Assembly: GCF_036507355.1 (NCBI RefSeq)
Contig: NZ_AP027877.1
DNA from: Escherichia coli
GTDB taxonomy: Bacteria; Pseudomonadota; Gammaproteobacteria; Enterobacterales; Enterobacteriaceae
Direction: 5' to 3' (one strand)
Length of the DNA: 64,000 nt
Shown: positions 25,644 to 47,335 of the stretch, piece by piece
How the letters are laid out: every line of letters starts with the position of its first letter
Position numbering within the stretch: the first letter of the stretch is position 1
The notes under the pieces: generated by a model
What the model saw: only the letters and a program-made list of their open reading frames with translations
The model's database searches: none
What the model was told of the DNA's origin: nothing
Made by a program: the position numbers and the translations under genes

Positions 25644-25730
25644 GCCCGGATGGTGGAATCGGTAGACACAAGGGATTTAAAATCCCTCGGCGTTCGCGCT
25701 GTGCGGGTTCAAGTCCCGCTCCGGGTACCA
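25644..25730 (+). tRNA. leuZ: tRNA-Leu (anticodon UAA), integration target of the island
   Basis: GCCCGGATGGTGGAATCGGTAGACACAAGGGATTTAAAATCCCTCGGCG...CCGGGTACCA, long variable arm. Confidence 0.95.
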
Positions 25731-25805
25731 TGGGAAACATCAGAATAATCAAAGCAATAAGCAGTGTCGTGAAACCACCTTCGGGTGGTTTTTTTGTGCA
25801 TGCAA
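25675..25805 (+). repeat. Left direct repeat (attL): 3' half of tRNA-Leu plus downstream terminator
   Basis: About 131 bp repeated with a few mismatches and a 2-bp indel at 51890-52022. Confidence 0.85.
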
Positions 25806-26709: not shown

Positions 26710-26789
26710 TCTTCAATCCTGCCCCGTAATAAAAACACCTTCAGATATATATTATCTCCATGATATCAATCAGATACATGAGGATAATT

Positions 26790-27989
26790 ATGCAAAAATC
26801 CTTCCGGTTTACCAATGCATCCATCAAAGCCCTACCTGCAAATACTGATACCCGCTCTACAGAGCTTGAGGTATCTGATACCGAAGTTATTGGACTCAAG
26901 TGCCTCTCAGGTCGAACAGGCAACAAGCGCTTCCTTCTGCGGTATACATTCCACGGTACCAAAAAAAGTATCAGTATTGGCAGATTTCCTGAAATTGATG
27001 TGGGAACAGCCCGGCAAATAGCCCGTCGTCACAAAGAAGCGATTGCGCTGGGAAATGACCCTAAAGCGGAGCGAGATAACTACCGCGCGATGCCAACACT
27101 TGGTGAGTTTTTCCATCAAACCTATGTTCCTTATATAAAGCGCCATAAAAAGTCATGGGATAAGGATGTTCAGCGTTTCACGCAATACATTGAACCTCGT
27201 CTGGGAAAGATACGTTACTGCGATCTCAGGGCCAGAGAGATACAACAGGTGCTGTTTGACATGCTGGAGGGGCGTATTCACGGGCAGCAATATGCGCCGT
27301 CTACCTGTAACAGAGCCCTTGCTATTCTGAAAACGATGGGGCGTTATGCGTTGCGACAGGATGTGCTGGAAAAGAATGAAGCCGATAAGATCCCTTTGCT
27401 GAAAGAGAATAATCAGCGGACGCGCTTTTTTGATGCTGATGAGATCAGGCGCATTCTTGACGCTGCTACCCAATATCCCAACAAAGCTGCCGGGGGATTG
27501 ATAGCCATGTTGTTGTTAACCGGTACACGCAAATCAGAAATGCTTAATGTCAGGCATGAACATATCGACCGGGCCAATCGTACTCTGTTCATTCCTTATA
27601 CAAAAAATGGTCGCAGTCGGACGGTATATCTAAGCGATGCCGCATTATCGATTATTGATGCTATCCCACGAGTTGGCAGTAATCCGTATCTGTTCGCCAT
27701 TAAGGATAATGGAAAACCGATATCGGAACCCCGATGGGCATATGAAAAAATACTGGCACAGTGCGGTATAGACAAGAATGAAGTCTGTTTTCACACCACA
27801 CGTCATTCTGTTGCCTCTTTACTGGTTTCGAGTGGTCAATTCAGCCTGTATGACGTTAAAGCCCAACTGGCGCATGCCAGTATTCAGAGTACAGAACGTT
27901 ACGCGAAATTAACACCGGAACGTATGCGTCAGACAGGGCAGGGAGTGACTGACCTGCTTCTGAATACTGCGGCTACGAAGCAGATGTGA
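26790..27989 (+). CDS. Tyrosine recombinase / integrase (P4-like arm domain)
   Basis: N-terminal arm-binding region, catalytic HTTRHSVAS (HxxR) and TERYAKL (Tyr); start taken at MQKSFRF. Confidence 0.85.
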   Translation: MQKSFRFTNASIKALPANTDTRSTELEVSDTEVIGLKCLSGRTGNKRFLLRYTFHGTKKSISIGRFPEIDVGTARQIARRHKEAIALGNDPKAERDNYRAMPTLGEFFHQTYVPYIKRHKKSWDKDVQRFTQYIEPRLGKIRYCDLRAREIQQVLFDMLEGRIHGQQYAPSTCNRALAILKTMGRYALRQDVLEKNEADKIPLLKENNQRTRFFDADEIRRILDAATQYPNKAAGGLIAMLLLTGTRKSEMLNVRHEHIDRANRTLFIPYTKNGRSRTVYLSDAALSIIDAIPRVGSNPYLFAIKDNGKPISEPRWAYEKILAQCGIDKNEVCFHTTRHSVASLLVSSGQFSLYDVKAQLAHASIQSTERYAKLTPERMRQTGQGVTDLLLNTAATKQM

Positions 27990-29360: not shown

Positions 29361-29795
29361 ATGCAAACCCAATATGCCTTAAAACAGGCAGGATTAACTC
29401 TGCCTGTTACTAAAGAATTTCAGCAGCATATTACTACGCTTCTGGCAAATCGGGTTTTACAAAAAATAACTGAGGCAGTGGTTATTAATTTCCGTGATCC
29501 GGACTACAGTGCAGAATCCGGCGGATTTCATCCGGTTGAAATGCGATTCATCCGTCAGGATAACGAATGGTATTTCGATTATGTCACAGACTTTAGTTAC
29601 ATGGGACGAGTCTACCCGGAACTGGAAAAAGAAATTGATTTTTGCTGGTCGGGGAATTATGTCTTCCATTATCTGGCTGGGGATATTTCACTGGCGGCAG
29701 AGAGGAATGAACTCTGGTCCTTATGGGAGGGTAATTTTATGGATTACCTGTCTATGGGGATTTACCGGGTAACGGTAACTGTGGAAAGTTGTTGA
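29361..29795 (+). CDS. Hypothetical protein (144 aa)
   Basis: ORF with plausible spacing; no family recognised. Confidence 0.5.
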   Translation: MQTQYALKQAGLTLPVTKEFQQHITTLLANRVLQKITEAVVINFRDPDYSAESGGFHPVEMRFIRQDNEWYFDYVTDFSYMGRVYPELEKEIDFCWSGNYVFHYLAGDISLAAERNELWSLWEGNFMDYLSMGIYRVTVTVESC

Positions 29796-30096
29796 CCCGT
29801 TATGAACAGGAAGAAAGCGGGCGGCTTTGTAATCTACTGCATGTGGCGTGCATCACAGCATGGAGATGATGTCTCTTTTTCCTGGCTGTTCGCATAAACA
29901 AGTGCAGACACGGGGGATCTCAGATCCCTCGTGATTTTTGCCCCCTATGGTGCATTCTCCAGTAGCAGGGTGATAACGGTTAATCCATTACCCCAACGAC
30001 AGTATTACACCGGTAATAAATGTTCATGAATACAGTTAGTTATGTGGGTTTTGAGGTGGGCTATGTCATCGTTGACGATAACTGAAGGTTTTACAG

Positions 30097-30324
30097 ATGT
30101 ATAAAACTCGCGGTGAAAGGATCGCAGAAAGGCTGTGCTGGATATTACTTCAACTGTATACCGGTAATACGGTATCGGTTAATGATATATGTCAGCGTTT
30201 CGCGGTCAGTCGCCGAACCGGACAGCGTGATTTGTTGAGAGTTGAAACTGTAACGGAAACTATTTCACCTGGAAGGGTAAGGCTGGCAAATTTGATAAGG
30301 GAACGAGTTAGACGAAATTTTTAA
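30097..30324 (+). CDS. Short HTH protein, possibly a remnant of a DeoR/WYL-type regulator
   Basis: VSVNDICQRFAVSRRTGQRDL resembles the N-terminal HTH of WYL/DeoR regulators; only 75 aa. Confidence 0.35.
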   Translation: MYKTRGERIAERLCWILLQLYTGNTVSVNDICQRFAVSRRTGQRDLLRVETVTETISPGRVRLANLIRERVRRNF

Positions 30325-30546
30325 TCGAATCCATATCAATTCTATAAAATATGAAAATTAACGGGAGTAAATATACACTCCCGTTATAATGCAACCTTTT
30401 TTTAACTACTCAAATGATATTAATTTAGGTGCGACAGTGTTTTTATGACATGTTAAATTCGCAAGATCAATAATATCATGAAACAATTTTAGGTAATGCT
30501 GCCAACTTACTGATTTAGTGTATGATGGTGATTTTAAGGTGCTTGC

Positions 30547-30822
30547 GTGGCTTCCATTTCCATCAGATGTCCTTCCTGCTACGCTACTGAAGGCGTGGTG
30601 CGTAACGGCAAAAGCACTGCCGGACATCAGCGCTATCTCTGCTCTCATTACCGTAAAACATGGCAACTACAGTTCACTTACACCGCCTCTCAGCCCGGTA
30701 CGCACCAGAAAATCATTGATATGGCCATGAATGGCGTCGGATGTCGCGCCAGTGCACGCATTATGGGCGTTGGCCTCAACACGGTTTTACGTCACTTAAA
30801 AAACTCAGGCCGCAGTCGGTAA
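30547..30822 (+). CDS. insA: IS1 InsA
   Basis: [40 protein letters not shown]... Confidence 0.92.
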
Positions 30823-30848
30823 CCTAGCGCATACAACCGGGCGGTGAT

Positions 30849-31244
30849 GTGATTGTCTGCGCTGAAATGGACGAACAGCGGGGTTACGTCGGCGCTAAAT
30901 CACGCCAGCGCTGGTTGTTTTACGCGTATGACAGGATTCGGAGGACGGTTGTGGCGCACGTATTCGGTGAACGCACTCTGGCCACACTGGAGCGTCTTCT
31001 GAGCCTGCTGTCGGCCTTTGAGGTCGTGGTATGGATGACGGATGGCTGGCCGCTGTATGAATCCCGCCTGAAGGGAAAGCTGCACGTTATCAGCAAGCGT
31101 TACACTCAGCGCATTGAGCGACATAATCTGAATCTGAGACAACATCTGGCAAGGCTGGGACGGAAGTCACTGTCGTTCTCAAAATCGGTGGAGCTGCATG
31201 ACAAGGTCATCGGGCATTATCTGAACATAAAACACTATCAGTAA
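30849..31244 (+). CDS. insB: IS1 InsB (transposase part; InsAB' made by frameshift)
   Basis: ...[47 protein letters not shown]... Confidence 0.9.
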
Positions 31245-31435
31245 GTTGGAGTCATTACCTGTTTTTGCTGCATATTTGGCCATGCACTTTTGCCATCAAG
31301 TCAGAGAGACAGGGGCACCGTAAGAGACGAAGGTTGCTGCCTGTGATGAGAGGTTATCAGCAATTACAATGGTCACTAATATTTACATAATGTCGGAGAA
31401 CATCATTTTAGTTGAAATAATATAAAGGCGGTTCT

Positions 31436-31810: not shown

Positions 31811-34474
31811 TCAGACTGGAAGACAGAATGTCGGATATTTACGGGCTATGATATCCATCAGTGACTTCATTCGCGGTGTTACAGAACTAAATTTCATTTG
31901 GGGTATTTTTGCTCTTACCGCATTTTTTACATCAGTCACCGTTACTGAATAGCCTTCTGACGTCAGCCATTCAGCAACCTCTTTACAGGAATAACTTTTT
32001 TTATCTTTCAGCATCAGCCCCCATTGGCACTGAGTCAGCGCCCGGAGAAATAGTCTGACTAAAATATCATCACTACGTTTGCTTCCGACTTTTAGTTTCA
32101 TATCAGAAAACACCGTCCGGCAATAGAGAAAATCACACCAGTCATCCCAGTCAGCCAGGGTCTTCAGTGTATGCGTTTGCCGCCAGTCGTCGAAAAGGGA
32201 GCGTTGCTGCAGAGCCTCTTCCATATTATCCCACGGGCGGGAAAACATCAGTAGATGCCCTTCATTCATGGCGGGCCGTACGGGCTGGCGTTTGAAATCG
32301 AATTCCAGATTAAGACGGATATCCTGTTCCCGGGATACCAGATCGCTTTCCGAGAGCCACATCTCACGCGTTGATATCAACGTACTTCGGGATAACGTCT
32401 GACCGGGTAAACGATTAAGGTAAAGATCTACCATATAGTCGTTATAGTCACTGCGTGGAATATCGGCAGGAGGTTTGACGCCAGCCCTGGCATGAACAAC
32501 AGGTTTTCCCTGAATCGCTTTATAGGTTAACTGCCCCCGGGTTTTCATGGCGATAAGCTGGCTGACCTCATGCTTACATGTCAACATTGATGAACCCGGA
32601 TCAACAATATCGCACAGCGACTGGAAGCGGGAAGACAGTGGACCGCTCATGTTTATCTTGTCAAGTGGGCAATTTGTCAAAAAACCATCGGTTGTGACGC
32701 TGACAACCGATGAATCAGAAGGCAAAGCATTCATGAGTTCCCCGACAACGGCGCGGATAAATCCCGTCACATGCGCAGCAAAGAATGGCTGAGTAACCGA
32801 TGATGGTGGGAGGGATCTGTTTAATCCACGGGCAGTATCAAAGGCGGTTTTGGCGCGAAGGCCCTGAGCAAGTTTGCCATAAAGCGAGTTGCCAATTTCT
32901 TTCCAGAATTTCTCCTCCAAAGAACCCTTAATATGGCGATTACGGTTCTCACGGACCTGTTGAACAAAGGGAAGAAACACCGATGTTGATTCGCTGTTAT
33001 GTGGGGAGGTGTCACAGATCCAGGGGACGATGATCCCATTATGGATCGTCATCTCTGCCCCGAGCGACAGAGCAAGTTCGATTTCAGGTGCCGTTGCCCA
33101 TGATTCGCCACTTAATGGAAAGAATAACCCATATTGATCGGTCCGAACCGGCAGGCTGGGATAGGGAACTGATTCCGGGAACCGAAATGTGACAAGCGCA
33201 AATCCCATCACATGCCCACAGTAATCGTCCGGATTTTTACTGAGGCGGATGTTTCCGTAATCGGGTATGAGGATATCTAATAGCCCGGTGGTATACGCTC
33301 CAGCCAGATCGTAGTCATACCAGTGATCAGACGGTGTAACCCCCATCATAAAACACTCATTGCGTCCGCCGTGGTAACAGTTGATCGGGAACGTTTCAAA
33401 CAACTCTCTTGAAGGAACACTGGCGGGGTTTTTAATCGTCCGGAATGCCTGTTTCTCCGTGAGCCAGAGTTCACGGGTTTTAATGTGTGTCCCAAGGCAG
33501 ACTTCAGGAGACATATTGTTTTCTTTAAGTGTTTTGGTGAACCGTGAAACTGCCATCGCCCCGATGGTGGCGGGGACACGATCAATCATCAGCTCCCGGG
33601 CGCAAAAATTGCGAACCTGTAAAGCATAACGAACCGCAATCTCGGCATCCCGCAGAGCATAGGCTTCAAACCCTGCTCTGTCGCCCAGAAGATATTCACG
33701 CATATTGGTTATGGAATAAGGTGCAGGAATGGTGAGTTTGGGAAGACCCAGTAATTCACCACATTCAGCCAGACCCATACCCCCGGGAGTGATAAGCAGT
33801 GTATCGATGAAAGCTACGTTACTGCAACGCGGAGGGGAAGTTCGTTTGTCAAACATTATCTGTTCAGTCTTTACGCGACGTTCCTGCTGTTCATCAAAAT
33901 CGATACCGTAACGATTTTTGAAGCTGCTGACAGTACCGCGTATTCCTTTCAGAAGAATTTTGTAGTCTGACCAGAAATTGGCAAAGGAGGCGATATCCGC
34001 ACGAATGAAATGCGCATATATATTAATAATACCGGGCCATTTTGTAATCACACCCGTTTCAAGAAGCGGTGTAATCGTTTGACAGAGAAATTCCTTAAAA
34101 GACAGTCGGGATTTTTTCTGTGAGTCAGGTGGATAGATAATGTTCGATATACCAGTGTTATCGGGTAAGACGACATAACTCTGATATGACAGAATATCAT
34201 TCTGTTGTGTTTCAGGATTGAAAACATATTCGGTATCAAAACCGATATGGAGTGTCAGGTCACTTGAAATAACAGATACTTTTTTTGATGCAGGTGGTAT
34301 CACAGGATAATCATCAAGCGTTTTAGGTCTTTTAAGATTGAGCGCTGGCTCTGAAGTCACGGACTGATACCCCGAGGCGGCAGCGAGGATATCCTGCAAA
34401 TTATGGCTCATAGTTAACTCCGAAAAAATGCCGGGAGCTGTGTCCCGGCATAAAGAATCAAGATTTAATAACAT
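31811..34474 (-). CDS. Family-B DNA polymerase of the primer-independent PolB (piPolB) type
   Basis: Exo I FDTEY, motif B KEIGNSLYG (KxxxNSxYG), motif C-like VTTDG, and KTRG in AMKTRGQLTY in place of the KxY motif; 887 aa. Confidence 0.85.
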   Translation of the reverse strand: MLLNLDSLCRDTAPGIFSELTMSHNLQDILAAASGYQSVTSEPALNLKRPKTLDDYPVIPPASKKVSVISSDLTLHIGFDTEYVFNPETQQNDILSYQSYVVLPDNTGISNIIYPPDSQKKSRLSFKEFLCQTITPLLETGVITKWPGIINIYAHFIRADIASFANFWSDYKILLKGIRGTVSSFKNRYGIDFDEQQERRVKTEQIMFDKRTSPPRCSNVAFIDTLLITPGGMGLAECGELLGLPKLTIPAPYSITNMREYLLGDRAGFEAYALRDAEIAVRYALQVRNFCARELMIDRVPATIGAMAVSRFTKTLKENNMSPEVCLGTHIKTRELWLTEKQAFRTIKNPASVPSRELFETFPINCYHGGRNECFMMGVTPSDHWYDYDLAGAYTTGLLDILIPDYGNIRLSKNPDDYCGHVMGFALVTFRFPESVPYPSLPVRTDQYGLFFPLSGESWATAPEIELALSLGAEMTIHNGIIVPWICDTSPHNSESTSVFLPFVQQVRENRNRHIKGSLEEKFWKEIGNSLYGKLAQGLRAKTAFDTARGLNRSLPPSSVTQPFFAAHVTGFIRAVVGELMNALPSDSSVVSVTTDGFLTNCPLDKINMSGPLSSRFQSLCDIVDPGSSMLTCKHEVSQLIAMKTRGQLTYKAIQGKPVVHARAGVKPPADIPRSDYNDYMVDLYLNRLPGQTLSRSTLISTREMWLSESDLVSREQDIRLNLEFDFKRQPVRPAMNEGHLLMFSRPWDNMEEALQQRSLFDDWRQTHTLKTLADWDDWCDFLYCRTVFSDMKLKVGSKRSDDILVRLFLRALTQCQWGLMLKDKKSYSCKEVAEWLTSEGYSVTVTDVKNAVRAKIPQMKFSSVTPRMKSLMDIIARKYPTFCLPV

Positions 34475-35096
34475 TTACTACAGATTTGAAAATATCGGTT
34501 TTGCGTGATTCATCATCTACATGGATAAAGGAAACGAGTTTCCTGCCTGCTTTAATCAGGATACCGCGTTGCGTCTTTTCCACAGACGGGGTAACGTGTG
34601 CAGATAACAGACAATGTTCATGTAAATGAAGAAACTTTTTTGAGGCGTAGCCGCCATGTAATCGGGCTTGAATGTCAAGATACATATCATCAAGAGAACC
34701 GGGTTCTCCTGATTCACTCAATACCGGATAACCCTTCTTATCAAAGAGGTTAAGGATAGATTTACTATCATGTTCGAACAGGGTAACACCGTAAATGTAT
34801 TTCATTCGAAAGGTGAGGGAATCGGTGGTGTAGACCTCCTCCTGACGATTGAAATTTTTGAGACGCCTGGCTAATTCATTAAAAACAGCACGAGCAGTAG
34901 CCGTGTCCTGCAGGGTGTAGGTATAAAGTACGAAGCCATCTGTGCCGATGAGCTTTACTAAGTTGTCCATAATCGTGATAGCGAGAACTAATGCAAAGGA
35001 TAGATATTTTTCATCGTTGTCTACAGCTGTGTTTGCTGCTTCAGGAAGAATGTTCAGTGCATTATTAGCATTATTTGCTGTGTTCTTAGTAACCAT
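34458..35096 (-). CDS. Hypothetical protein (212 aa) co-transcribed upstream of the polymerase
   Basis: Overlaps the polymerase start by 17 nt and the AlpA-like gene stop by 11 nt. Confidence 0.55.
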   Translation of the reverse strand: MVTKNTANNANNALNILPEAANTAVDNDEKYLSFALVLAITIMDNLVKLIGTDGFVLYTYTLQDTATARAVFNELARRLKNFNRQEEVYTTDSLTFRMKYIYGVTLFEHDSKSILNLFDKKGYPVLSESGEPGSLDDMYLDIQARLHGGYASKKFLHLHEHCLLSAHVTPSVEKTQRGILIKAGRKLVSFIHVDDESRKTDIFKSVVNVIKS

Positions 35097-35286
35097 TTAT
35101 ATCACCTTTAAGTTTGTTTTGACGATGTGCATTTTCCCACTCAACAATATCATCAAGAGAGAATCGTATAGCCCGCCCAATTCTGATGAAGGGCGGGAGT
35201 TTTCCGGGGTTGCGCGATATATCTGACGCAACCGTGGATGCAGAAAGATTAAATCTTTCTGCGAACTGCTTAATGGTTAAATACAT
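35086..35286 (-). CDS. AlpA-family phage-type regulator / excisionase-like HTH protein
   Basis: 66 aa, MYLTIKQFAERFNLSASTVASDISRNPGKLPPFIRIGRAIRFSLDDIVEW, typical AlpA/Xis HTH_17. Confidence 0.75.
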   Translation of the reverse strand: MYLTIKQFAERFNLSASTVASDISRNPGKLPPFIRIGRAIRFSLDDIVEWENAHRQNKLKGDINGY

Positions 35287-35436
35287 AAACCTCCGGTTTC
35301 AGAGAATAAGAAGCCACGCGGATTTAATATCAATCCACATTCTGTGATGACTTAATGCAGGGCCCTGCAGAAGCATGCAATGACAATACCGTCCTTAAAC
35401 GAGTGTTGCATCAATCACGAATCACAGATCATAGGT

Positions 35437-36564
35437 TCATTTTGTGTCATAACTTTCTATGACCTGAGAAACCACTGCGTGTGATGTCGCTGCATTGTGA
35501 AAAGCGTAGCGACGGGTCGCCGTGAGTGAATGGTGATTTAGCAGATGGGAAGCGATTGCAATATCCCCGGTCGCCTGTAGTACCCGGGTGGCAAAGGTAC
35601 GGCGCAGGTCATGCATCCGCAGGTTATCAATGTTGGCATCCCGACAAATACGGGCAAAGGTTGCACGCGGATATGCCAGAGGGCGGGCATTGTCGGTTAG
35701 TTGTGGAAAAATGTAAGTTTTGCTGAGCATCAGGTCCTGCTGGCACTGGACAACTGCAATGGCTGGAAGTGCAAGTGGGCAGGTGAAAGGGTGTCCGGAC
35801 TTTGTATCAGGCAGTATGAGTTGATGCATATCCGGGTGCCAGTACTCCCATTTCAGGGTACATACCTCACCAATACGCATCCCCGTATAAAGAGCAAGCA
35901 ATATAGAATCAGCTGCCGGTGTTTGCAGCGCTGTTGCTGCGTTAATAAAGCGCGGGATTTCTGTCGCTGACAGTGTGCGATAGCGAATGTTATTTTCTTT
36001 CAGATAGCGGACATGTGACATCGGGGAATGTGTGATCCATCCAGCACGTACTGCCAGAGAGCATATTTTGGACAATATTGCGAGGATACGGTTTACTGTT
36101 GACGGACGTAATTTTTCCCGTAAGCCAGCAGCATATTGTTCTAGTTCTCCTGCCGTGATGTCGCGAAGTTGCCGCTTGCCCCAGAACGGGCGAACGTAGA
36201 GGTTGAGTTTTGACAACTCTGACTGAGGACTCTTTTTATACAACTGCAAATCCGGTAGCCACAGGTCATTGATGGCCTGTTCCACAGTGAATCGACGGGA
36301 CTGAACAGCAAGGCGATTTTTATCGGCAAGCAGGTTCATCACATGCTGACGGGCATCCTCAATGCAGAGATGAGGGAATTCACCCAGTGTTTCATATATA
36401 CGTTGATTTTTGATGGTGGCGCGAAAGGCCAGCGTGATCCGTTTTGGATATACCAGTGCACGCAGGTTTTGGCACTGAATATCACGGTATTCCTGACAAC
36501 CCGTGAGGGGATGTGGAAGTTGGTGAATTGATTTGTTGCTGAAACGCAGATCCAGAATAGGCAT
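35437..36564 (-). CDS. Second tyrosine recombinase / integrase
   Basis: Catalytic HDLRRTFATRV (HxxR) and TRRYAF (Tyr), plus core-binding-like N-terminal region. Confidence 0.85.
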   Translation of the reverse strand: MPILDLRFSNKSIHQLPHPLTGCQEYRDIQCQNLRALVYPKRITLAFRATIKNQRIYETLGEFPHLCIEDARQHVMNLLADKNRLAVQSRRFTVEQAINDLWLPDLQLYKKSPQSELSKLNLYVRPFWGKRQLRDITAGELEQYAAGLREKLRPSTVNRILAILSKICSLAVRAGWITHSPMSHVRYLKENNIRYRTLSATEIPRFINAATALQTPAADSILLALYTGMRIGEVCTLKWEYWHPDMHQLILPDTKSGHPFTCPLALPAIAVVQCQQDLMLSKTYIFPQLTDNARPLAYPRATFARICRDANIDNLRMHDLRRTFATRVLQATGDIAIASHLLNHHSLTATRRYAFHNAATSHAVVSQVIESYDTK

Positions 36565-36706
36565 CGTATTTCTCCTGTAAATGACACTGGAAAAATACGA
36601 TGTGAGGTTATAGTCTGCCAGTTACAGCTTTCACAGTTCATCAGGTGAAAAATGCTGATTCGGATATAATGGCAACACAATTCCATGTCGCCATTATATT
36701 AAGAAA

Positions 36707-37837
36707 CTACAGTTTCATGATCTTGTTCGCTATTTTTTCGAAGTAAACCTCATTCTTAAGAAGAGTGATATTGTTAGTTTGAACACCCAGACCACTGGAG
36801 GTTGACTGGAAGTTGAGTGAACCACTTATCACGGTGGACTTTCCTGATAAAAATGAAATCAACTCCTTGGAAGATGGTGCCCACTCAGGGTTTAAGAGTA
36901 ATGCAATGTAGATATATGTCTTACGAAGCAATTGTTCGATATCTTTTTTATACCCCGTAGTGTTTTGCTTACCTTTAATGCAAATTGATTTGATTATGAA
37001 CTCATCAGGGCTGGTTAAAGGCGTTTTAAACTTATTCAGTGATCCATCGTTATGAATGACTTCATAAGGCAGCATAGATAAAATGATCAATGCAATCATT
37101 TTAGGATGATAAAGGTAGTTATCACGAATGATTTTTCCTGCCTTCATTGTATTGAGTGTTGTTTGAATAAATACAAAAAGATATTCAGAGCAAAAGTAAC
37201 AAAACACAAGCCAGGATAGGTCAATGGCTGGAATGTTAATATCCTTAGGTAGTTTGTTTAGCCAGTATTCAGACTTCAAAAAGGTCCTGATTTCAACAGT
37301 ATATTCATGCATTTTTGCGCTGAAATCAAGCATTGCTACTTGACCTGATTGTTCCGTAACTGTGTGGTCTATAAATGTTAGTGTATTGCACATTTTATCC
37401 AGCGTGTTTTGAAAACAAGAAAGGAGTTCGGCATTATTATTACCATTAACCGCAGATGAAAGTTCAGTTGCAATAAATGCATCCAGTAGCATACAGATTT
37501 TTTTCGGAATGACATTTTTACGGGATTGCTGTGAATAGAAATATACTGCCAGTAAATTAAAGGCAGTGCACTCCTTTTTTAACCATTGTTCGAGCACTGG
37601 GACGTGCTGAAAAAAATTGATATGCTTAGCAGTAGATGCTGATGGAGATAGTACATGAAGAATATCTACAGCAGGCTTCATTTGCAATATTTGATCGGAT
37701 TCGGTAGTCGTCATTAGTTCCAGTAATTGCTGTTCAGAAAATAGTTTAGACAGGTGATCAATGTCTTTTTGGTATTGGTTAAGTTTTTTTAAATTCCCCG
37801 GTACACGGGTTACATTGTTTTTCATTTTCTCGAACAT
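36707..37837 (-). CDS. Hypothetical protein (376 aa), AT-rich orphan
   Basis: Long ORF in visibly AT-rich DNA; no motif recognised. Confidence 0.55.
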   Translation of the reverse strand: MFEKMKNNVTRVPGNLKKLNQYQKDIDHLSKLFSEQQLLELMTTTESDQILQMKPAVDILHVLSPSASTAKHINFFQHVPVLEQWLKKECTAFNLLAVYFYSQQSRKNVIPKKICMLLDAFIATELSSAVNGNNNAELLSCFQNTLDKMCNTLTFIDHTVTEQSGQVAMLDFSAKMHEYTVEIRTFLKSEYWLNKLPKDINIPAIDLSWLVFCYFCSEYLFVFIQTTLNTMKAGKIIRDNYLYHPKMIALIILSMLPYEVIHNDGSLNKFKTPLTSPDEFIIKSICIKGKQNTTGYKKDIEQLLRKTYIYIALLLNPEWAPSSKELISFLSGKSTVISGSLNFQSTSSGLGVQTNNITLLKNEVYFEKIANKIMKL

Positions 37838-38239
37838 AATTTTATCCTCGTTTGAATTAATACACTGATTTAAAAAGTAGCATGTCGTGTTAGCGAGGTA
37901 ATCCTAAAACGTGAATGGGATCAGGGGCAAGCTTGAATCTGCGTAAGGATATGGCTTAAATTTAATGGTGTAATTAGTGGATTAGAGGCTTATAGCTATT
38001 TAAATACAATAAGTTATGACGGTGTGTGGCGGGTGTAAATCGGTTAGTTTTTATGGTTAAAATATGAGCGCTATGAGGTTTCAGAGATGGTGGTGTTTAA
38101 ATTACATAAAACCAAGGCCTGATAATCAGTATCAATACCGGAACGATGTCATATGATTAACACTGTCTATGGCATTGATAATGATCTATGCAAGGCTGAA
38201 ATTAGCTCTGCTTCACGATGATATAGTGTTCTATAAAGA

Positions 38240-39475
38240 TTAAAAGGAAATAAACAGAGCCTTTCGCCGATGAATCAATGTGCTGATTTCCCTCAAATCA
38301 GCCTCAATACTACCAACATCACCAAAGACTTCACCTCTAATCTCACTTCGATTTTTCATGAAATTGGTGCTTAATAAGCTTTCTTTTTTTAATGCCATTA
38401 ATTTTGGTTTTATATCGTTATAGAAATGCTTACGGCTTACCCTGATGCTATGAATCGAGTAGTAAACTGTTTTATACATCAAAAATATAAGTAACTGGCC
38501 GAGAAGATATTCTTTTTCAATGTATTTATATTGAGAGGATTTTTCGCGTTTCGCCAGGTAGAAAACATGAGGTGCGATGATGGTGGGGATAAAATCCAGT
38601 GCTGGAGAGGTTTTGGTTTTTTCTGTTTCTCTTCCGGATTGAAGATGTTGAAGTACAGAGTATACAATGCTTAAAATTATGGCGTTACTTATATTATTAA
38701 TTGCAGTTGGGTAAATATGCAGATTGCTTATCAATTCTGAAAGGCAAAGTAAAACACCAGTGATGTTGGGTTTTCTGCCGGAGATTGTGGTGCTGTTGAA
38801 AATGTGACGATTCTTACGACTTATATTGACAAGTTTATGAGTGCAGAACTCTATATGTTCGACGATTTTATCTTGACTATTTTTAATGTATTTTGAAATG
38901 TTAGTGATCCGGCCATTCAACGTTAGTTCATCAAGCAATATATCATTTTTAATATTGCGAATTTCATCGCAATGTTCACATTGAGAAACTATCTCATGTA
39001 ATACATAACTCGAAGTATTGCGTGACGATGCTGATATGTAATCTAAAATGGAATGCTCGACTTTGATTTTTTGTTTGTATTTTTTAATGCACTGTTTGAT
39101 TGTTTTTTGTAGAGTATTTGAGATGTGTTTTTTATATTCTTTTAGAAAATCTTGCTCTAAAAAGAGTGAGGAGAAGATCAACTGCTGGCGAGATAATTTA
39201 ATCTCAGGCTTGATCAATTTAATCCGAAAAACTCTTCCCTCCAACTCATAGCTGAACATGGAAGATAAGTCATAGTGGGGTGATAAATGTTCGAGTAACG
39301 ACATTCGTGTATTCATTAGCCGCTTGAATTTATGGTCAGCATACATAAGTGTTTTTTTTATTTGCTCATCATAAAGTGGGCCGATAGCGCAGTTGGCAAT
39401 ACTCATTCTATCCGGAGACCTCCAGTCAGCAGGGGAATCACATTGACGGTCATCATTACTATCAAAGGGCATCAA
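38240..39475 (-). CDS. Hypothetical protein (411 aa), AT-rich orphan
   Basis: Long ORF in visibly AT-rich DNA; no motif recognised. Confidence 0.55.
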   Translation of the reverse strand: MMPFDSNDDRQCDSPADWRSPDRMSIANCAIGPLYDEQIKKTLMYADHKFKRLMNTRMSLLEHLSPHYDLSSMFSYELEGRVFRIKLIKPEIKLSRQQLIFSSLFLEQDFLKEYKKHISNTLQKTIKQCIKKYKQKIKVEHSILDYISASSRNTSSYVLHEIVSQCEHCDEIRNIKNDILLDELTLNGRITNISKYIKNSQDKIVEHIEFCTHKLVNISRKNRHIFNSTTISGRKPNITGVLLCLSELISNLHIYPTAINNISNAIILSIVYSVLQHLQSGRETEKTKTSPALDFIPTIIAPHVFYLAKREKSSQYKYIEKEYLLGQLLIFLMYKTVYYSIHSIRVSRKHFYNDIKPKLMALKKESLLSTNFMKNRSEIRGEVFGDVGSIEADLREISTLIHRRKALFISF

Positions 39476-39778
39476 CGTTGCCGATTATGGATGATGTCAG
39501 CTTCACACACCAGTACGGGTGATATATGGATCATCATTACCCCAACGGCAGTTTTACACCATGGCTAATATGGATGCTATCTTACTAAGATAATTGGTTT
39601 TTAGCGAGTGACGAGCCAGGTTGTGTCAGTCTGTCTCATGTCGATATTACGGGGATGATGCAAACCTGAATGCTGCGATATTGGCGTGTCAGGGGAGGCA
39701 TCTTACGGTATCATTTACCGCAATTTTTAAGATGCAAAGCCCTGCATCGCTAGCTTTTTCTTCAGACCAGGATGATTC

Positions 39779-41302
39779 ATGAACGACAAAATCAGTCAGG
39801 ACACGATCAACAAAGCCCTGTGGGCCGCGTGTGATACGTTCCGTGGCACCATCAGTGCTGATACCTATAAAGACTTTATCCTTACCATGCTGTTCCTCAA
39901 GTACATTTCAGATGTCTGGCAGGATCACTACGACGAATATAAAGTGCAATATGGCGATGCGCCGGAACTGATTGAAGCGATGATGGCGAACGAGCGCTTC
40001 GTGTTGCCGAAAAGCGCCAGTTTCTATGCGTTGTACGAGCGACGTCATGAGCCGGGCAACGGTGAGCGTATCGATCAGGCGCTGCATGCGATTGAAGAAG
40101 CCAACGGCACCAAACTGAAAGATGCCGGGAAAAGTGTCTTCCAGGATATTTCGTTTAACACTGACCGTCTGGGCGAAGAAAAACAGAAGAACACCATCCT
40201 GCGTCAGTTGCTGGAAGACTTTGCCGGTGAAGATCTTAACCTGAAGCCAAGCCGTGTCGGTACGCTGGACGTTATCGGTAATGCTTACGAATATCTGATC
40301 AAAAACTTTGCTGCCAGCGGTGGGCAGAAAGCCGGGGAATTCTATACCCCGCCGGAAGTTTCGGACCTGATTGCTGAACTGCTCGATCCGCAACCGGGTG
40401 ATACCATCTGCGATCCGGCCTGTGGTTCGGGTTCATTGTTGATGAAGTGTGGGCGTAAAATTGTCTCCGGGCATGATAGTCGTAACTATGCATTGTTCGG
40501 TCAGGAAGCGATCGGTTCTACGTGGTCGCTGGCGAAAATGAATATGTTCCTGCACGGGGAAGACAACCATAAAATCGAGTGGGGCGATACCATTCGTAAC
40601 CCGAAGCTGCTCGATAAAAATGGCGACCTGATGCTGTTTGATATCGTGACCGCTAACCCACCGTTCAGCCTCGATAAGTGGGGCCATGACGAGGCCGAGA
40701 ACGATAAGTTTGGCCGTTTTCGTCGCGGTGTACCGCCGAAGACTAAAGGAGATTACGCTTTTATCTCGCATATGATCGAAACCCTGAAACCGGGAACTGG
40801 CCGTATGGGCGTAGTTGTGCCACACGGTGTGCTTTTCCGTGGCTCCAGCGAAGGTAAAATTCGCCAGAAACTGATCGACGAAAATTTGCTGGATGCGGTA
40901 ATTGGTCTGCCGGAAAAACTGTTCTACGGTACGGGGATTCCGGCTGCGATTCTGATTTTTAAAAAGCAGAAAGTTGATGACAAGGTGCTGTTTATCGATG
41001 CCAGCCGTGAATTCAAGGCAGGTAAAAACCAGAACCAGCTTAGCGAAGAAAACATTAAGAAAATCGTCAAGACCTACCGTGATGGCGATAACGTCGAGAA
41101 ATACGCCTATCTTGCCAGCCTGAAGGAAATTCAGGACAACGACTATAATCTCAATATCCCGCGCTATGTCGATACCTTTGAAGAAGAGGATGAGATTGAC
41201 CTGCTGGCGGTGCGAGCAGAACGCGAGCAACTGAAGGCGGAATTGGCGAAGCTGGAAACGGAGATGGCTGGATATTTGAAGGAGTTGGGTTATGGCTCGT
41301 GA
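39779..41302 (+). CDS. hsdM: Type I restriction-modification methyltransferase subunit HsdM
   Basis: N6-adenine MTase motifs (DPACGSGS, TANPPFS), 507 aa. Confidence 0.92.
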   Translation: MNDKISQDTINKALWAACDTFRGTISADTYKDFILTMLFLKYISDVWQDHYDEYKVQYGDAPELIEAMMANERFVLPKSASFYALYERRHEPGNGERIDQALHAIEEANGTKLKDAGKSVFQDISFNTDRLGEEKQKNTILRQLLEDFAGEDLNLKPSRVGTLDVIGNAYEYLIKNFAASGGQKAGEFYTPPEVSDLIAELLDPQPGDTICDPACGSGSLLMKCGRKIVSGHDSRNYALFGQEAIGSTWSLAKMNMFLHGEDNHKIEWGDTIRNPKLLDKNGDLMLFDIVTANPPFSLDKWGHDEAENDKFGRFRRGVPPKTKGDYAFISHMIETLKPGTGRMGVVVPHGVLFRGSSEGKIRQKLIDENLLDAVIGLPEKLFYGTGIPAAILIFKKQKVDDKVLFIDASREFKAGKNQNQLSEENIKKIVKTYRDGDNVEKYAYLASLKEIQDNDYNLNIPRYVDTFEEEDEIDLLAVRAEREQLKAELAKLETEMAGYLKELGYGS

Positions 41303-42566
41303 TTCGCTTTACCCAGTGAGCGTTAAAGCTGGAAAACCGATCCTTGGAATGCTACCTACAGGATGGCAAAAGTTATCATTAGAAAAGTGCTTAAATATAG
41401 AGGCAAGAAAGGCATATATACAAGATAATCAAGAGTATGACTTAGTTACAGTAAAGCGCTCCAGAGGTGGCGTAATAAGACGTGAGCATCTTAAAGGAAA
41501 AGATATCTCCGTAAAAAGTCAATTCTATATTAAAGAAGGCGACTTTCTCATATCAAAACGACAAATTGTGCACGGTGCTTGCGGTCTTGTACCTAAAGAA
41601 CTTTCTGGCTCAATTGTATCGAATGAATATTGTGTGCTTACAGGGAAGTCCGGTTTTTATCTTCCTTATATGGAATTTCTATCGGAGTCTCTATATTTCC
41701 AGCAAACCTGCTTCCACTCTAGCATTGGTGTGCACATAGAGAAAATGATTTTTAAGTTAGATAGTTGGTTTAAGTGGCCATTTAATATCCCCCCACTGTC
41801 TGAACAAAAGAGAATCGTTAAAATCCTGTCAACCTGGGATAAGGCGATTTCGGTGACGGAAAAGCTTCTCACCAACAGTCAGCAGCAGAAAAAAGCCCTG
41901 ATGCAGCAATTGCTTACCGGGAAAAAACGCTTGCTGGATGAGAGGGGGGTGAGGTTTAGTGGGGAGTGGAAGAGAGTAAAACTGGGTGCGATAGCCGATA
42001 TGAACAGTGGAGGTACTCCGAAATCAACGGTTGAAGAGTATTATGGCGGGAATATCCCATGGGTATCTATTTCTGATATGACATCTAATGGAAAGTGGAT
42101 TGCTACAACTGAAAAATATCTGACTGAATTAGGATTGAACAGTTCATCCGCAAGAATATATCCAAAAAACTCGGTTCTTTATGCTATGTATGCTTCTATA
42201 GGTGAATGCAGCATTGCTGCTGTAAATTTAACATCTTCGCAGGCAATCTTGGGTATTAGACCAAAAGATTGTTTAAATTATGAGTTTTTATATTTCTATC
42301 TTACATCATTAAAAGAAAAAATAAAACTGCAAGGCCAGCAAGGTACACAGTCCAACCTAAACGCCGGAATGGTTAAAGAGTTTGAACTAGACTTACCCAG
42401 TATAAGAGAACAACAAAAAATCGCCGCCGTCCTGTCCGTCGCCGATGCCGAAATCTCCACGCTGGAGAAAAAACTCGCCTGCCTGAGAGATGAGAAAAAA
42501 GCCCTGATGCAACAGCTACTGACTGGCAAACGTCGTGTTAAGGTCGATGAGGCGGTTGCCGAATGA
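41292..42566 (+). CDS. hsdS: Type I R-M specificity subunit HsdS
   Basis: Two target-recognition domains separated by repeated conserved helices (KKALMQQLLTGKKRL / KKALMQQLLTGKRRV); overlaps hsdM. Confidence 0.9.
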   Translation: MARDSLYPVSVKAGKPILGMLPTGWQKLSLEKCLNIEARKAYIQDNQEYDLVTVKRSRGGVIRREHLKGKDISVKSQFYIKEGDFLISKRQIVHGACGLVPKELSGSIVSNEYCVLTGKSGFYLPYMEFLSESLYFQQTCFHSSIGVHIEKMIFKLDSWFKWPFNIPPLSEQKRIVKILSTWDKAISVTEKLLTNSQQQKKALMQQLLTGKKRLLDERGVRFSGEWKRVKLGAIADMNSGGTPKSTVEEYYGGNIPWVSISDMTSNGKWIATTEKYLTELGLNSSSARIYPKNSVLYAMYASIGECSIAAVNLTSSQAILGIRPKDCLNYEFLYFYLTSLKEKIKLQGQQGTQSNLNAGMVKEFELDLPSIREQQKIAAVLSVADAEISTLEKKLACLRDEKKALMQQLLTGKRRVKVDEAVAE

Positions 42567-43246
42567 AACTGACGAAAAGCGGTCCACTGACTGACCGGGA
42601 AATCGACTGGCTGGAAGAAATATTAATGAAGTATGGAATGGATGATTCTGTACTCTGTTTCTCTGAGCTGGATGGATTGCTGACGGCGATTTTATCAGGT
42701 CCAAATATGGTTTCACCCAATATCTGGCTGAGTGCTATTTGGGGAGGAGGCGATTATCATCCGAAATGGTCATCTGAGAGAGAGATGGAGCGTTTTGTCA
42801 GTCTGTGTTTTCAGCATATGAACGATATCGCTGGTTGCCTTTATGACGCCCCTGAACTGTTTGAGCCGATTTTCAATGAGCGTGAGGTAAAGGGGGAAAA
42901 ATATACCATTGTGGAAGAGTGGTGTTTTGGTTATATGAAAGGAAAGTCACTGGATGACTGGTCTGGTCTTCCCGGTGAGTTACGGCCTTCTCTGGAAGTG
43001 ATCGCTCTTCATGGCGTGGAGAAGAATTTTCCTGTACTTGAGAAAATGACCAGAGAGCAGTTTGAGAAAAGTATTTCCCTTATTAAGCCTGCTGCACTGG
43101 CACTTTATCAGTACTGGTTGTCAGTGAGAATGTCAGAGGCATCATCCCGGCCTGTTCCAGTGAAGGGGGCAGAAAACATGCCCGGGCGAAATGACCCGTG
43201 TCCGTGTGGCAGCGGTAAAAAATTTAAGAAGTGCTGTCTGCATTGA
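42563..43246 (+). CDS. YecA-like UPF0149 protein with C-terminal SEC-C metal-binding motif, nested in the hsd operon
   Basis: Aligns along its length with chromosomal YecA at 52141-52806; ends [20 protein letters not shown]; ATGA overlap with the hsdS stop. Confidence 0.8.
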   Translation: MKLTKSGPLTDREIDWLEEILMKYGMDDSVLCFSELDGLLTAILSGPNMVSPNIWLSAIWGGGDYHPKWSSEREMERFVSLCFQHMNDIAGCLYDAPELFEPIFNEREVKGEKYTIVEEWCFGYMKGKSLDDWSGLPGELRPSLEVIALHGVEKNFPVLEKMTREQFEKSISLIKPAALALYQYWLSVRMSEASSRPVPVKGAENMPGRNDPCPCGSGKKFKKCCLH

Positions 43247-43295
43247 TGAATCTTCATGTGACCAGTAGCGAGTAGCGCCAGAAAGAAAAGGATTA

Positions 43296-46200: not shown

Positions 46201-46583
46201 TGAAACAGTACCTTTTGTTCCGTGAATTTGAAGAACAGGTTGAAGCCCGTAAGCTCAGCGATATCCCGGATGCACTGGCGGTAAACAAGCATGCTCAGGC
46301 GTATTACGGTGTATTTAAAAAAGAGCTACCTGAGGTTTTTGCGGTAAACGACGTTCAGGTGCAGGATAAGTGGACCAAGCTGGCTTTTGAAGTGGACAAC
46401 ATTATCGTCAAAGCGGTGGCAGAAAACTCCCTGAACCCCCAGGACATTGAGAAAGTCGTTAAGACAAGTCTGCTACCACTGCTGTTTACGGCCTGCCGGG
46501 AAATTGGTGCCGGAATGAATCAGGTTAACCGTATTGTGGAAACCATCATCCAGATACTGCGCGTTGGTTTGATGAAATCATGA
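43296..46583 (+). CDS. hsdR: Type I restriction endonuclease subunit HsdR
   Basis: 1095 aa; Walker A TGSGKSYT and DEAH-like box DEGHRS. Confidence 0.92.
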   Translation: MMNQTYTPKFQEEYSAKIPALTLLTSLGWTFLSPKQIMDYRGYKQDEVVLRPVLREELSKRSFMAGGKTCQLSEKALDNLISQVCSPALNEGLLKANERMYNHLLYGIAVTEFVDGKKVNPTIALIDWEHPESNQFHFTEEFTVLRSGGVETRRPDIVCFVNGIPLAVIEAKSPAGHGKKGPTIDEGISQSIRNQLNDEIPQLFAYSQILLSINGHDGRYGTCHTPMKFWAAWREEDITYAQMYALRNHKLSTEQIHALFDDRPSVDLKWYQQLIDGGELAVSGQDKLLISLLSPERLLEMTRFFTLFDKKTGKIVARYQQVFGIKRLLERISTRRPDGGREGGVIWHTTGSGKSYTMVFLSKALILHDSLKQCRIVVVTDRVDLEGQLSGTFVSGGELAGKDDKAKAMATSGQKLAQQIGSGKERIIFTLIQKFNSATKLPECVNTSPDIIVLIDEGHRSQGGENHVRMKLALPNAAFVAFTGTPLLKEDKTTNKFGPIVHAYTMQRAVEDKAVTPLLYEERIPDLEVNDRAIDAWFDRITDGLSEAQKADLKRKYARKGEVYSADDRIRLIALDIATHFSKNIDEGLKGQLACDSKISAIKYKKYLDEAGLFESAVVISPPDTREGNTEVDESKLPEVTKWWKDNVGTQDESVYTRNIISRFDTDEKLKLLIVVDKLLTGFDEPKNTVLYIDKPLKSHNLIQAIARVNRLHPLKKFGLLIDYRGILAELDTTIGKYQDLASRTQGGYDIKDIDGLYSAMSSEYKRLPHLYNQLWAIFAGVKNKNDTEQLRAVLVPKMEERDGEMVDIHQKTRDDFFEALTAFAGCLKVALQSATFFTDKSFTEQDRNLYKETVKQMSSLRQWAMQVSGEQVNYDDYAEQVKKLLDKHVTGVEVREPDGVYEVGKMGKSEKPEEWDNNKTRNETDIIKTRVTKMIEQELRDDPYAQEAFSKLLRMAIEEAEKLFDHPLKQYLLFREFEEQVEARKLSDIPDALAVNKHAQAYYGVFKKELPEVFAVNDVQVQDKWTKLAFEVDNIIVKAVAENSLNPQDIEKVVKTSLLPLLFTACREIGAGMNQVNRIVETIIQILRVGLMKS

Positions 46584-47335
46584 GTGAAAAAGAATCGCCA
46601 TCAATGAAAGCGTTACGCATTGTCTATGGTGATGATGTCATCACCGTACAGTGTGTTCCGCGTCAGGTCGTAAAGGGCAGGGTGCTCATCAAGGTTTATC
46701 CGGACTGCCGGGTTGTGGCCTCTGTACCGCCTGAAACACCGGAGCACGAGGTATTGTCTGCGCTGAAAAAAAGAGGGCGCTGGATATACCAGCAACTGCG
46801 TGATTTCAGGGAGCAACAGACACACATTGTTCCGCGTCAGTATGTCAGCGGAGAAAGCCATTATTATCTCGGTAAGCAATATCAGTTGAAAGTGACAGAA
46901 GACGCTACTGTGCCGCAACGAGTGAAAATGTTGCGTGGGCGTCTGGAAGTGACTGTCAGACACAAATCGGCAGAAAAGATTAAAGCCTTGCTGGCTGAAT
47001 GGTATCGGGAACGTGCCAGAGATGTTTTTCAGCGCAGGCTTGATTTACTGATTCCGCAGACCCTTTGGGTCAGTGAGCGTCCTCCGATACGTCTGCGGGC
47101 GATGCAAACGCAATGGGGCAACTGTTCAGCAAAAGGCTGTCTGACCCTGAATCCATGGCTGGTTAAGGCATCCTCAGAATGTATCGATTATGTTTTGCTA
47201 CATGAGTTATGCCATGTGGCTGAGCACAACCACAGCGAGGAGTTTTACCGTCTGATGGGGCAGGTTATGCCTGGGTGGGAAAAGGTCAAGAAACGACTGG
47301 ATGGGATGGCTGGGATGTTGTTGGCTGATATGTAA
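46580..47335 (+). CDS. HExxH zinc metallopeptidase (M48/YgjP-like) after hsdR
   Basis: HELCH motif; ATGA overlap with the hsdR stop. Confidence 0.7.
   Translation: MSEKESPSMKALRIVYGDDVITVQCVPRQVVKGRVLIKVYPDCRVVASVPPETPEHEVLSALKKRGRWIYQQLRDFREQQTHIVPRQYVSGESHYYLGKQYQLKVTEDATVPQRVKMLRGRLEVTVRHKSAEKIKALLAEWYRERARDVFQRRLDLLIPQTLWVSERPPIRLRAMQTQWGNCSAKGCLTLNPWLVKASSECIDYVLLHELCHVAEHNHSEEFYRLMGQVMPGWEKVKKRLDGMAGMLLADM

Follow-up and report, generated by a model that had tools for sequence, protein, structure and literature searches.

A short core repeated in two intergenic regions of enterobacterial pipolins: a candidate promoter-plus-operator cassette

What is the role of a short sequence that stands twice in the intergenic DNA of one and the same island? 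The question is raised by a stretch of 64,000 nucleotides of Escherichia coli DNA (contig NZ_AP027877.1, assembly GCF_036507355.1; hereafter "the window"), which contains a pipolin, an island carrying the polymerase gene piPolB. An earlier note, made from the letters of this stretch, had described an imperfect direct repeat of ~60 bp at 29959-30020 and 39510-39570, and had proposed that the copies are recombinase sites, module boundaries or a shared regulatory element. The core of this repeat is a real, strongly constrained, pipolin-specific cis-element. The regulatory option is the best supported of the three, given the position of the core in promoter regions, the -35/-10-like hexamers at a fixed distance and an island of conservation of 25 nt. 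We consider it probable, if by a modest measure, that each copy is a duplicated promoter-plus-operator cassette of the enterobacterial pipolin backbone.

A two-copy core specific to pipolins

Both copies stand where the earlier note had placed them, and both are non-coding. Copy 1 lies between the stop of a DUF2787 gene (29795) and the start of a 75-aa open reading frame (30097), and copy 2 between the start of a 411-aa gene on the minus strand (39475) and hsdM (39779). Together they enclose, as had been claimed, the insertion sequence (IS) IS1, piPolB, an internal tyrosine recombinase gene and orphan genes. Aligned without gaps, 29986-30011 (CATTACCCCAACGACAGTATTACACC) and 39535-39560 (CATTACCCCAACGGCAGTTTTACACC) are identical at 24 of 26 positions, the very figure given at the outset, and the two copies share the pattern CATTACCCCAACG[A/G]CAGT[A/T]TTACACC. 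The units are as follows.

29987..30011, plus strand: copy 1 core, ATTACCCCAACGACAGTATTACACC; identified from the sequence, with the same site 5' of the small helix-turn-helix (HTH) gene in every pipolin examined
39536..39560, plus strand: copy 2 core, ATTACCCCAACGGCAGTTTTACACC, the consensus form; identified from the sequence, and present in the p376/cargo intergenic region wherever the fetched pipolin sequence covers it
29959..29975, plus strand: copy 1 upstream box, CCAGTAGCAGGGTGATA, of which the GGTGATAAC part is kept in nearly all copy-1 lineages
39510..39524, plus strand: copy 2 upstream box, CCAGTACGGGTGATA, found only in some copy-2 lineages

The earlier note had itself named chance similarity as a reason to give the repeat up. 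The alignment score is far above chance, and the motif recurs in related elements. With up to three mismatches, the core is found at exactly two sites in the 64-kb window and at none in 100 dinucleotide shuffles, and no further degenerate copy appears in the window with up to five. TTAC[AC]CC heptamers are not enriched elsewhere in the window. When the two 300-nt neighbourhoods are aligned locally with gaps, they reach a score of 57, where random pieces of the window reach 18 +/- 2.4 (maximum 29). The flanks, which had been called similar, are so on the left only. The left flanks CCAGTAGCAGGGTGATA and CCAGTACGGGTGATA score 20, against 10.4 +/- 2.0 for shuffles (reached by 6 of 2000, p about 0.003), through a shared box of 15-17 nt, CCAGTA(GCA/C)GGGTGATA. 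The similarity of the right flanks is at chance level, their score being reached by 1902 of 2000 shuffles. With left flanks above chance and right flanks at chance, the real unit is thus a core of 25-26 nt with an upstream box of 15-17 nt; a uniform repeat of 60 bp is ruled out.

The earlier note had also asked for the motif in other pipolins, and it is found there at the same two intergenic positions across genera. The divergent E. coli pipolin L002 (loci are designated L002, L006 and so on) carries both copies, with an identical core between different flanks. A 20-base pattern run against one genome per species, for 100,044 species, retrieved 14 loci, all in pipolin or pipolin-derived DNA. 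Thirteen of them belong to Enterobacterales (Enterobacter, Citrobacter, Buttiauxella, Intestinirhabdus, Atlantibacter, Franconibacter), usually with two loci per contig. The fourteenth, L007, is a 2.7-kb contig (JARKOR010000040.1) of a metagenome-assembled genome labelled Candidatus Nanosynbacter, and it matches a Klebsiella plasmid. This contig carries an IS1 end, copy 2 and the hsdM junction, and is identical, where the two were compared, to the junction in the Klebsiella plasmid; enterobacterial contamination of the assembly is almost certain. A looser scan of metagenomes retrieved 36 pipolin or plasmid contexts and two chance matches, and in 321 E. coli genomes the copy-1 region is found at a median of one place per genome. 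A miniature inverted-repeat transposable element, an IS remnant or a repeat of the REP/ERIC type (repetitive extragenic palindrome or enterobacterial repetitive intergenic consensus) was rejected: the core is present twice per element and nowhere else in the window, and its 14 species-wide matches lie in pipolin or pipolin-derived DNA.

As a guard against circularity, loci were also sampled independently of the core, through homologues of the small HTH protein or of a 376-aa orphan. These loci possess both copies wherever both positions are covered (L022-L026, L028, L029, L031, L033-L036, L075-L079). They belong to Serratia, Scandinavium, Citrobacter, Enterobacter, Hafnia, Edwardsiella, Phytobacter and further E. 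coli lineages, and their backbone proteins share only 30-77% identity with those of the window. In this protein-anchored set, the core reaches 1.76 bits per column in copy 1, versus 0.8-1.3 in its flanks, and 1.89 bits per column in copy 2, versus 0.5-1.1. The substitutions in the core concentrate centrally (positions 13-16 and 18-19). Across all these loci the flanks become unalignable, while neither CCCCAACG nor TTTTACAC varies, not even in the copies that diverge most, those of Edwardsiella and Phytobacter. The most diverged cores, found in these two genera, read GTT[A/T]CCCCAACGGTGATTTTACAC[T/C], with a 1-nt insertion in copy 2 of Phytobacter. The layout of two copies, their positions relative to the genes and the extreme conservation of the core are common to these elements, and in its promoter region the core stands out as a conserved island that diverged relatives have maintained, as would be expected of a transcription-factor operator. 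One Enterobacter locus (L032, 11129-20237) keeps copy 1 and the small HTH operon, and its piPolB/IntP2 operon is replaced, after a truncated GTPase gene, by genes for an Ank/sigma-70-like protein, HATPase, Z1, DUF4420 and AIPR.

A predicted promoter and operator in each copy

Both copies are oriented like the gene on their right, and both display matches to the sigma-70 promoter consensus at constant spacing. The 3' block of the core contains TTTACA (core positions 18-23), a 5/6 match to the -35 consensus TTGACA, which is found in copy 2 and in 16 of the 22 distinct copy-1 sequences. At copy 1, a promoter scan of L023 called TTTACA-16-GATATT. This arrangement is kept exactly in 14 of the 22 sequences, and the GATATTACAG box is conserved although the sequence of the 16-nt spacer varies. 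On this numbering, the core would lie between about -51 and -27, and the invariant TTACCCCAACG between about -50 and -40. Copy 1 begins 44 nt past the DUF2787 terminator and ends 80-86 nt before the start codon. At copy 2, TATC[T/C/A]T is found at a 19-nt spacing in 21 of the 25 distinct sequences, across otherwise dissimilar families of flanks. The elements in the window and the units that they adjoin are listed below.

30004..30009, plus strand: putative -35 of copy 1, ATTACA in the window (4/6) and TTTACA (5/6) in most lineages
30026..30035, plus strand: putative -10 region of copy 1, ATGAAT+ACAG (ATGAAT 3/6), a weak form of the conserved GATATTACAG box, 16 nt past the -35
39553..39558, plus strand: putative -35 of copy 2, TTTACA
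39578..39583, plus strand: -10-like hexamer of copy 2, TATCTT, exactly 19 nt past TTTACA
39589..39594, plus strand: second -10-like box of copy 2, GATAAT; a TA-rich hexamer stands here, 29-34 nt past the core, in all right-flank families
29909..29943, plus strand: intrinsic terminator of the DUF2787 gene, an invariant hairpin with a T run, and upstream limit of the copy-1 promoter region
30097..30324, plus strand: small winged-HTH gene, 75 aa, with a weak HTH_11/DeoR-like match; first gene 3' of copy 1
31811..39475, minus strand: leftward operon of a 411-aa orphan, the 376-aa orphan, an IntP2-type tyrosine recombinase, an excisionase-like HTH protein, a 212-aa orphan and piPolB, with copy 2 upstream
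39779..41302, plus strand: hsdM, first gene of the type I restriction-modification (R-M) cargo, 219 nt 3' of copy 2, with other defence cargo beyond

The proposed cassette would work as follows. The 3' block TTTTACAC would supply the -35 hexamer, with the -10-like hexamer at a fixed distance in the variable flank, and the invariant C-rich 5' block would be the site of a sequence-specific binding protein. We infer from the sequence that the hexamers are used and that a protein binds the 5' block; its candidates are named below on the same footing. Copy 1, directly past the DUF2787 terminator, would drive the small HTH operon. Copy 2 lies in the control region from which the p376-IntP2-Xis-piPolB operon and the cargo diverge, and would be directed at the cargo, which consists of the type I R-M system in the window and of a UvrD/PD-(D/E)XK gene in other pipolins (L022, L025). 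A single regulator would in this way link the two transcription units that flank the replication/recombination module.

A metagenome locus with another gene behind copy 1 (L067, contig OGTM01000132.1, 5460-6066) bears on this proposal in both directions. It harbors an LRAT/NlpC-P60-like 160-aa gene after copy 1 and no small HTH gene, and still keeps the core and a -10-like TTTAAT, which fits a promoter that is needed whatever gene follows. The same locus possesses a perfect TATAAT directly after the core, and its two cores are only 7.3 kb apart.

Several observations weigh against the cassette. Copy 1 of the window is weak (ATTACA-16-ATGAAT, 7/12), and the promoter scanner called no promoter at either window copy. 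The spacer of copy 2, with 19 nt, is suboptimal (the optimal range being 16-18 nt), and TATCNT is missing in the U2 and Hafnia families of flanks. The core is devoid of dyad symmetry, a feature that the site of an HTH dimer would usually have. Its only internal similarity is that of TTACCCC and TTACACC, in direct orientation and 17 nt apart, and an imperfect inverted partner, GGTGATAAC, stands upstream of the core in some lineages only. L067 keeps both cores with neither the small HTH gene nor the WYL regulator gene found in other lineages. Finally, hsdM is 219 nt away from copy 2, and its own promoter-like site, at 39686-39714, is better; the core of copy 2 lies 61-88 nt from the start codon of the leftward operon. 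With hsdM so distant and so equipped, copy 2 could act on the leftward operon rather than on the cargo. A leftward sigma-70 promoter beside copy 2 was itself rejected, as TATACT abuts the core in some flank types and is not conserved, and the scanner calls none.

The closest rival keeps the promoter and dispenses with the regulator: the core would be an extended, duplicated -35/upstream region, with the 5' block kept for the binding of RNA polymerase. It accounts for TTTACA with a conserved -10 at fixed spacing, and for the retention of the core both in L067, with its other downstream gene, and on Klebsiella plasmids without any backbone genes. We nevertheless deem it unlikely. The invariant 5' block TTACCCCAACG is C-rich, unlike the A/T-rich UP elements, and 11 nt invariant across genera 5' of a -35 exceed what is seen in ordinary promoters. 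Moreover, the -35 and -10 are themselves tolerated in weaker forms (ATTACA, TATACA, ATGAAT).

If the promoter-plus-operator cassette is retained, which protein would bind it? The small HTH protein encoded beside copy 1 is a textbook candidate for autoregulation, judging from its position. With 75-78 aa, it is a free-standing paralogue of the winged HTH at the N terminus of the WYL regulator (40% identity over 42 aa, E = 1e-8; L022 12404-13330). It could compete with that sensor-regulator for the same DNA, and its family is restricted to these elements. Its autoregulation as the sole explanation is weakened by L067, which has both cores and neither of the two proteins. Other possible binders are the excisionase-like HTH protein, the WYL regulator, the two integrases and host factors. 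Inspection of the core by eye for host-factor motifs (LexA, CRP, Fur, IHF, TyrR, PurR, sigma-54, sigma-32, sigma-E) yielded no convincing match, the sole partial one being to a DnaA box (8/9) in the 3' block.

Joints at the core, and other roles

The copies are direct repeats that enclose the recombinase, excisionase-like and piPolB genes, their identity is restricted to about 25 bp, a length typical of attachment (att) cores, and the pipolin literature gives no explanation for the role of IntP2. The core might therefore be a site for the internal IntP2-type tyrosine recombinase and its excisionase-like partner. Exchange between copies 1 and 2 would excise a piPolB circle of 9.5 kb, and exchange between the copies 2 of two pipolins, together with their att sites, would swap cargo modules. 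We regard this as a doubtful proposition, somewhat more so than that of a promoter alone. A version of it, to which we give slightly less credence still, makes the core the substrate of a "secondary" IntP2/excisionase pair, in which exchange at copy 2 and at the tRNA-Leu att swaps the cargo and exchange between the two copies frees the 9.5-kb piPolB mini-circle. Such a two-site cassette exchange, if true, would explain the bimodular structure of pipolins and the lineage joints that lie exactly at the core.

These joints count in favour of recombination, and they coincide with the edges of the core or lie within it. L022 and L023 are 98% identical in their left flank and unrelated from the second base past the core, where the former has the UvrD/PD-(D/E)XK cargo and the latter hsdM. 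L028 and L033 show the reverse, with a right side 95-98% identical and an unalignable left side. In L006 and L070, an A-type left half is joined to a B-type right half at copy 1, in a hybrid core, and in Hafnia a U-type proximal flank is combined with hsdM. A second joint lies near the start of hsdM: the window and L002 are 94% identical in this gene, and in the 200 nt past the core only 67-75%.

The products of such an exchange were searched for with chimeric queries of 800 nt, representing the deletion (copy 1 left, copy 2 right) and the circle (copy 2 left, copy 1 right). In 5,426 E. coli genomes they revealed no junction of the deletion, circle or tandem kind, and none of the 525 matching E. 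coli genomes has a precise fusion of copies 1 and 2. A degenerate fusion pattern had no match in metagenome contigs, with no chimera in 36 metagenome contexts. The nearest case is E. coli I4 (L020, NZ_CP195978.1, 6500-6560), in which the deletion took place at an AGA microhomology and both cores are kept, 259 bp apart. The lost stretch reaches from the small HTH gene, at codon 12, into the 5' region of the 411-aa gene, and includes IS1, piPolB, both HTH proteins and IntP2. The island of I4 is thus a piPolB-less pipolin that retains DUF2787, the two cores and the R-M cargo.

The structure of the core also speaks against a recombinase site. There are no inverted arms around an overlap of 6-8 bp: TTACCCCAA and TTTTACACC are not reverse complements, and the heptamers TTACCCC and TTACACC are direct. 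In about two thirds of the lineages, the two cores of an element have unlike centres, and such central heterology would block strand exchange, a comparison that bears on the matter only if the overlap lies in the core centre. The centres differ by 1-4 nt in the window, L018, L022, L025, L028, L031-L036, L055, L067, L071/L072, L075 and L078, and are identical in L002, L014, L023, L076 and L077. Furthermore, one or two genes separate copy 2 from the recombinase gene, and the relatives of IntP2 in neighbouring prophages act at a tRNA-Leu att site. A Xer/dif-like (pdif) site was rejected, as neither the 11-6-11 architecture nor arms of the ATAA-N6-TTAT type are found on either strand. An origin of the core from the island's own att repeats was rejected too, these being unrelated in sequence. 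With junctions missing from the genomes searched, no inverted arms and mostly unlike centres, the option of a recombinase site put forward in the earlier note finds no support.

Plasmid capture and deletions, moreover, break at IS elements or microhomology, away from the core. Copy 2 and the R-M cargo are found on 349 plasmids, mostly conjugative Klebsiella IncFIB/FII plasmids, with 96-98% identity. The block of Klebsiella pneumoniae NZ_CP022125.1 (L021, 8980-18294, equivalent to window 39495-47335) comprises copy 2, hsdM, hsdS, a YecA-like gene, hsdR, an M48/SprT-like gene and DUF262. A capture mediated by the core was rejected for these plasmids, as the captured segment stops 41 nt left of the core, at an IS1 end. 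Plasmids of this lineage have TGTCTT in place of TATCTT. In Atlantibacter sp. RC6 (L015, 3250-3850), tRNA-Leu and att precede what is left of the first pipolin gene, to which copy 2 and hsdM are directly joined across 33 nt. The entire backbone is lost and the defence cargo kept; a loss at the core was rejected, since the joint lies 33 nt to its left, inside the first-gene remnant. The idea of a module boundary, and the related expectation that rearranged variants break at these sites, are consequently supported, in a descriptive sense, for the lineage mosaics, whose joints lie at the core edges or inside the core; they are not for the second joint near hsdM, nor for I4, Atlantibacter and the plasmids.

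The lineage joints are most simply explained if, in this intergenic DNA, diverged pipolins are still identical in the core alone, which is hence the place where they may cross over. About 25 bp is close to the minimal length for RecA-dependent exchange in E. coli. Joints at the core are then a consequence of its conservation and no proof of a dedicated recombinase site. The promoter-plus-operator cassette would thus serve in addition as a passive crossover place, embedded in fast-diverging intergenic DNA. The hsdM gene itself (39779-41302) displays 90-100% nucleotide identity among lineages whose backbone proteins share 30-77%, and the 200 nt upstream of it (39561-39778) only 60-79%. This contrast suggests that the R-M module has spread recently and that a joint lies near the start of hsdM.

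Two further roles are very improbable, to about the same degree. The core could be a replication site of the excised element, either a start for the primer-independent polymerase or an origin with DnaA boxes: TTTTACACC and, in L025, TTATACACC agree with the DnaA-box consensus TTWTNCACA in all but one of its 9 positions (window 30003-30011 and 39552-39560), the piPolB module lies between the copies, and a 2017 paper speculated on the replication of the episome from multiple origins. However, an 8/9 match in a 25-mer is expected by chance in about 2% of cases, by a rough estimate, and the final A is missing. Neither iterons nor an AT-rich unwinding region nor a hairpin is found at the core, and the literature text searched does not report a sequence specificity of piPolB. 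An iteron-type origin was rejected, with single units 9.5 kb apart where three or more tandem repeats are needed. Alternatively, the core could act as RNA, in the form of a shared leader motif, a small-RNA target or a small structured RNA, for if the leftward operon began on the right of copy 2 (L023 has a predicted minus-strand TTTACA-17-GATATT), its leader would contain the core; yet the Rfam matches in the window are tRNAs only, neither copy folds more stably than shuffles on either strand (z -1.1 to +1.2), and the core of copy 1 is upstream of the predicted transcription start.

The island and comparable systems

The pipolin of the window sits in tRNA-Leu(taa), in the glyW-cysT-leuZ cluster between pgsA and yecA, and is delimited by att repeats of 131 bp at 25675-25805 and 51890-52022. 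In addition to the units listed above, its backbone comprises the following features.

26760-27989: IntSXT-type integrase, followed by two orphans
29361-29795: DUF2787 gene
30478-31273: IS1, followed by an orphan
31811-34474, minus strand: piPolB
35086-35286, minus strand: excisionase-like HTH protein
35437-36564, minus strand: IntP2-type tyrosine recombinase

In other lineages, genes for the WYL regulator, a GTPase and a 135-aa protein are found between the small HTH gene and piPolB. They are absent from the pipolin of the window, which has IS1 there instead. Searches of defence and phage families with the neighbouring orphans (376, 411, 212 and 108 aa) gave no matches. The hairpin of the DUF2787 terminator (CACGGGGGATCTCAGATCCCTCGTG, window 29909-29933) is near-invariant in all genera examined, with single-base changes only, and matches the core in its conservation. 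Two other terminator-like hairpins (CGGTATCATTTACCG, and GATGCAAAGCCCTGCATC with a T run) lie at 39706-39760, in the final 75 nt before the start of hsdM. They are kept between flank families, the first one overlaps the predicted hsdM promoter, and they could provide attenuation or antitermination control of the R-M operon. A 38-nt direct repeat is found near the end of hsdM (40879-40916) and twice in hsdS (41887-41924 and 42493-42530). The pair in hsdS is probably the usual internal duplication of type I specificity subunits.

Repeated regulatory sites are found in temperate phages: Apl of phage 186 and Cox of P2 bind both the early promoter switch and attP, and the lambda operators OL and OR are repeated sites. 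The pipolin core resembles them in being a short sequence kept at two distant intergenic positions of one mobile element, each in a promoter region, with one copy in a divergent control region beside the integrase and excisionase genes. Unlike cI-type operators, it is asymmetric and devoid of dyad, and its binder is putative; unlike the Cox and Apl boxes, it has no multiple repeats phased at 10 bp, and neither copy is at an att site.

A similar comparison can be made with the controller (C) proteins of R-M systems and their C-boxes, since a conserved box stands before the small HTH gene and again upstream of an R-M operon. C-boxes, however, are palindromic and lie beside the C gene in type II R-M operons, whereas the pipolin box is asymmetric, the HTH gene is 9.5 kb away and the R-M system is of type I. 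The box also precedes cargo that is not R-M (UvrD/PD-(D/E)XK, in L022 and L025). The identity of the core as a controller C-box was rejected on these grounds.

The integron Pc/attI platform and the pdif modules of Acinetobacter plasmids share with the core the presence of a short site at the joint between a recombinase-encoding backbone and exchangeable cargo, and, as with the integron Pc, a promoter of the pipolin backbone may read into the downstream cargo. In contrast to these systems, no attC-like or second site is found at the far end of the pipolin cargo, the core displays neither the 11-6-11 Xer architecture nor inverted arms, and no recombination products were found. The cargo is made of large multi-gene systems, and a further joint lies near the start of hsdM. 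The att repeats of pipolins (ExplorePipolin; Sci Rep 2020; NAR 2024) are, like the core, direct repeats within the same element. They are about 131 bp long, derive from tRNA-Leu and bound the whole 26-kb island, unlike the core, which is 25 bp long, internal and of unrelated sequence.

Papers on pipolins (including Sci Rep 2020 and NAR 2024) describe the terminal att repeats, two integrase families and a bimodular structure of backbone and cargo. The pipolin literature searched makes no mention of an internal repeat, a promoter or a cis-element other than att, nor was the motif string found in any paper searched. The core, not previously described in this literature, is a familiar kind of element in a poorly understood island. 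Pipolins are recently defined, widespread defence islands with a primer-independent DNA polymerase, for which no published account of gene control was found. A box of 25 bp that has hardly changed across at least fourteen enterobacterial genera, and that stands at exactly two control points, one before a small regulator gene and the other dividing the polymerase/recombinase operon from the exchangeable defence cargo, offers a concrete handle on this question. It can be used as bait for the regulator, and mutants of it could show when piPolB, the recombinases and the cargo are expressed; it is also a marker of the site at which diverged pipolins recombine. Should a promoter of the backbone indeed read into whichever cargo is installed, this would provide a mechanism for the idea of pipolins as a bimodular platform.

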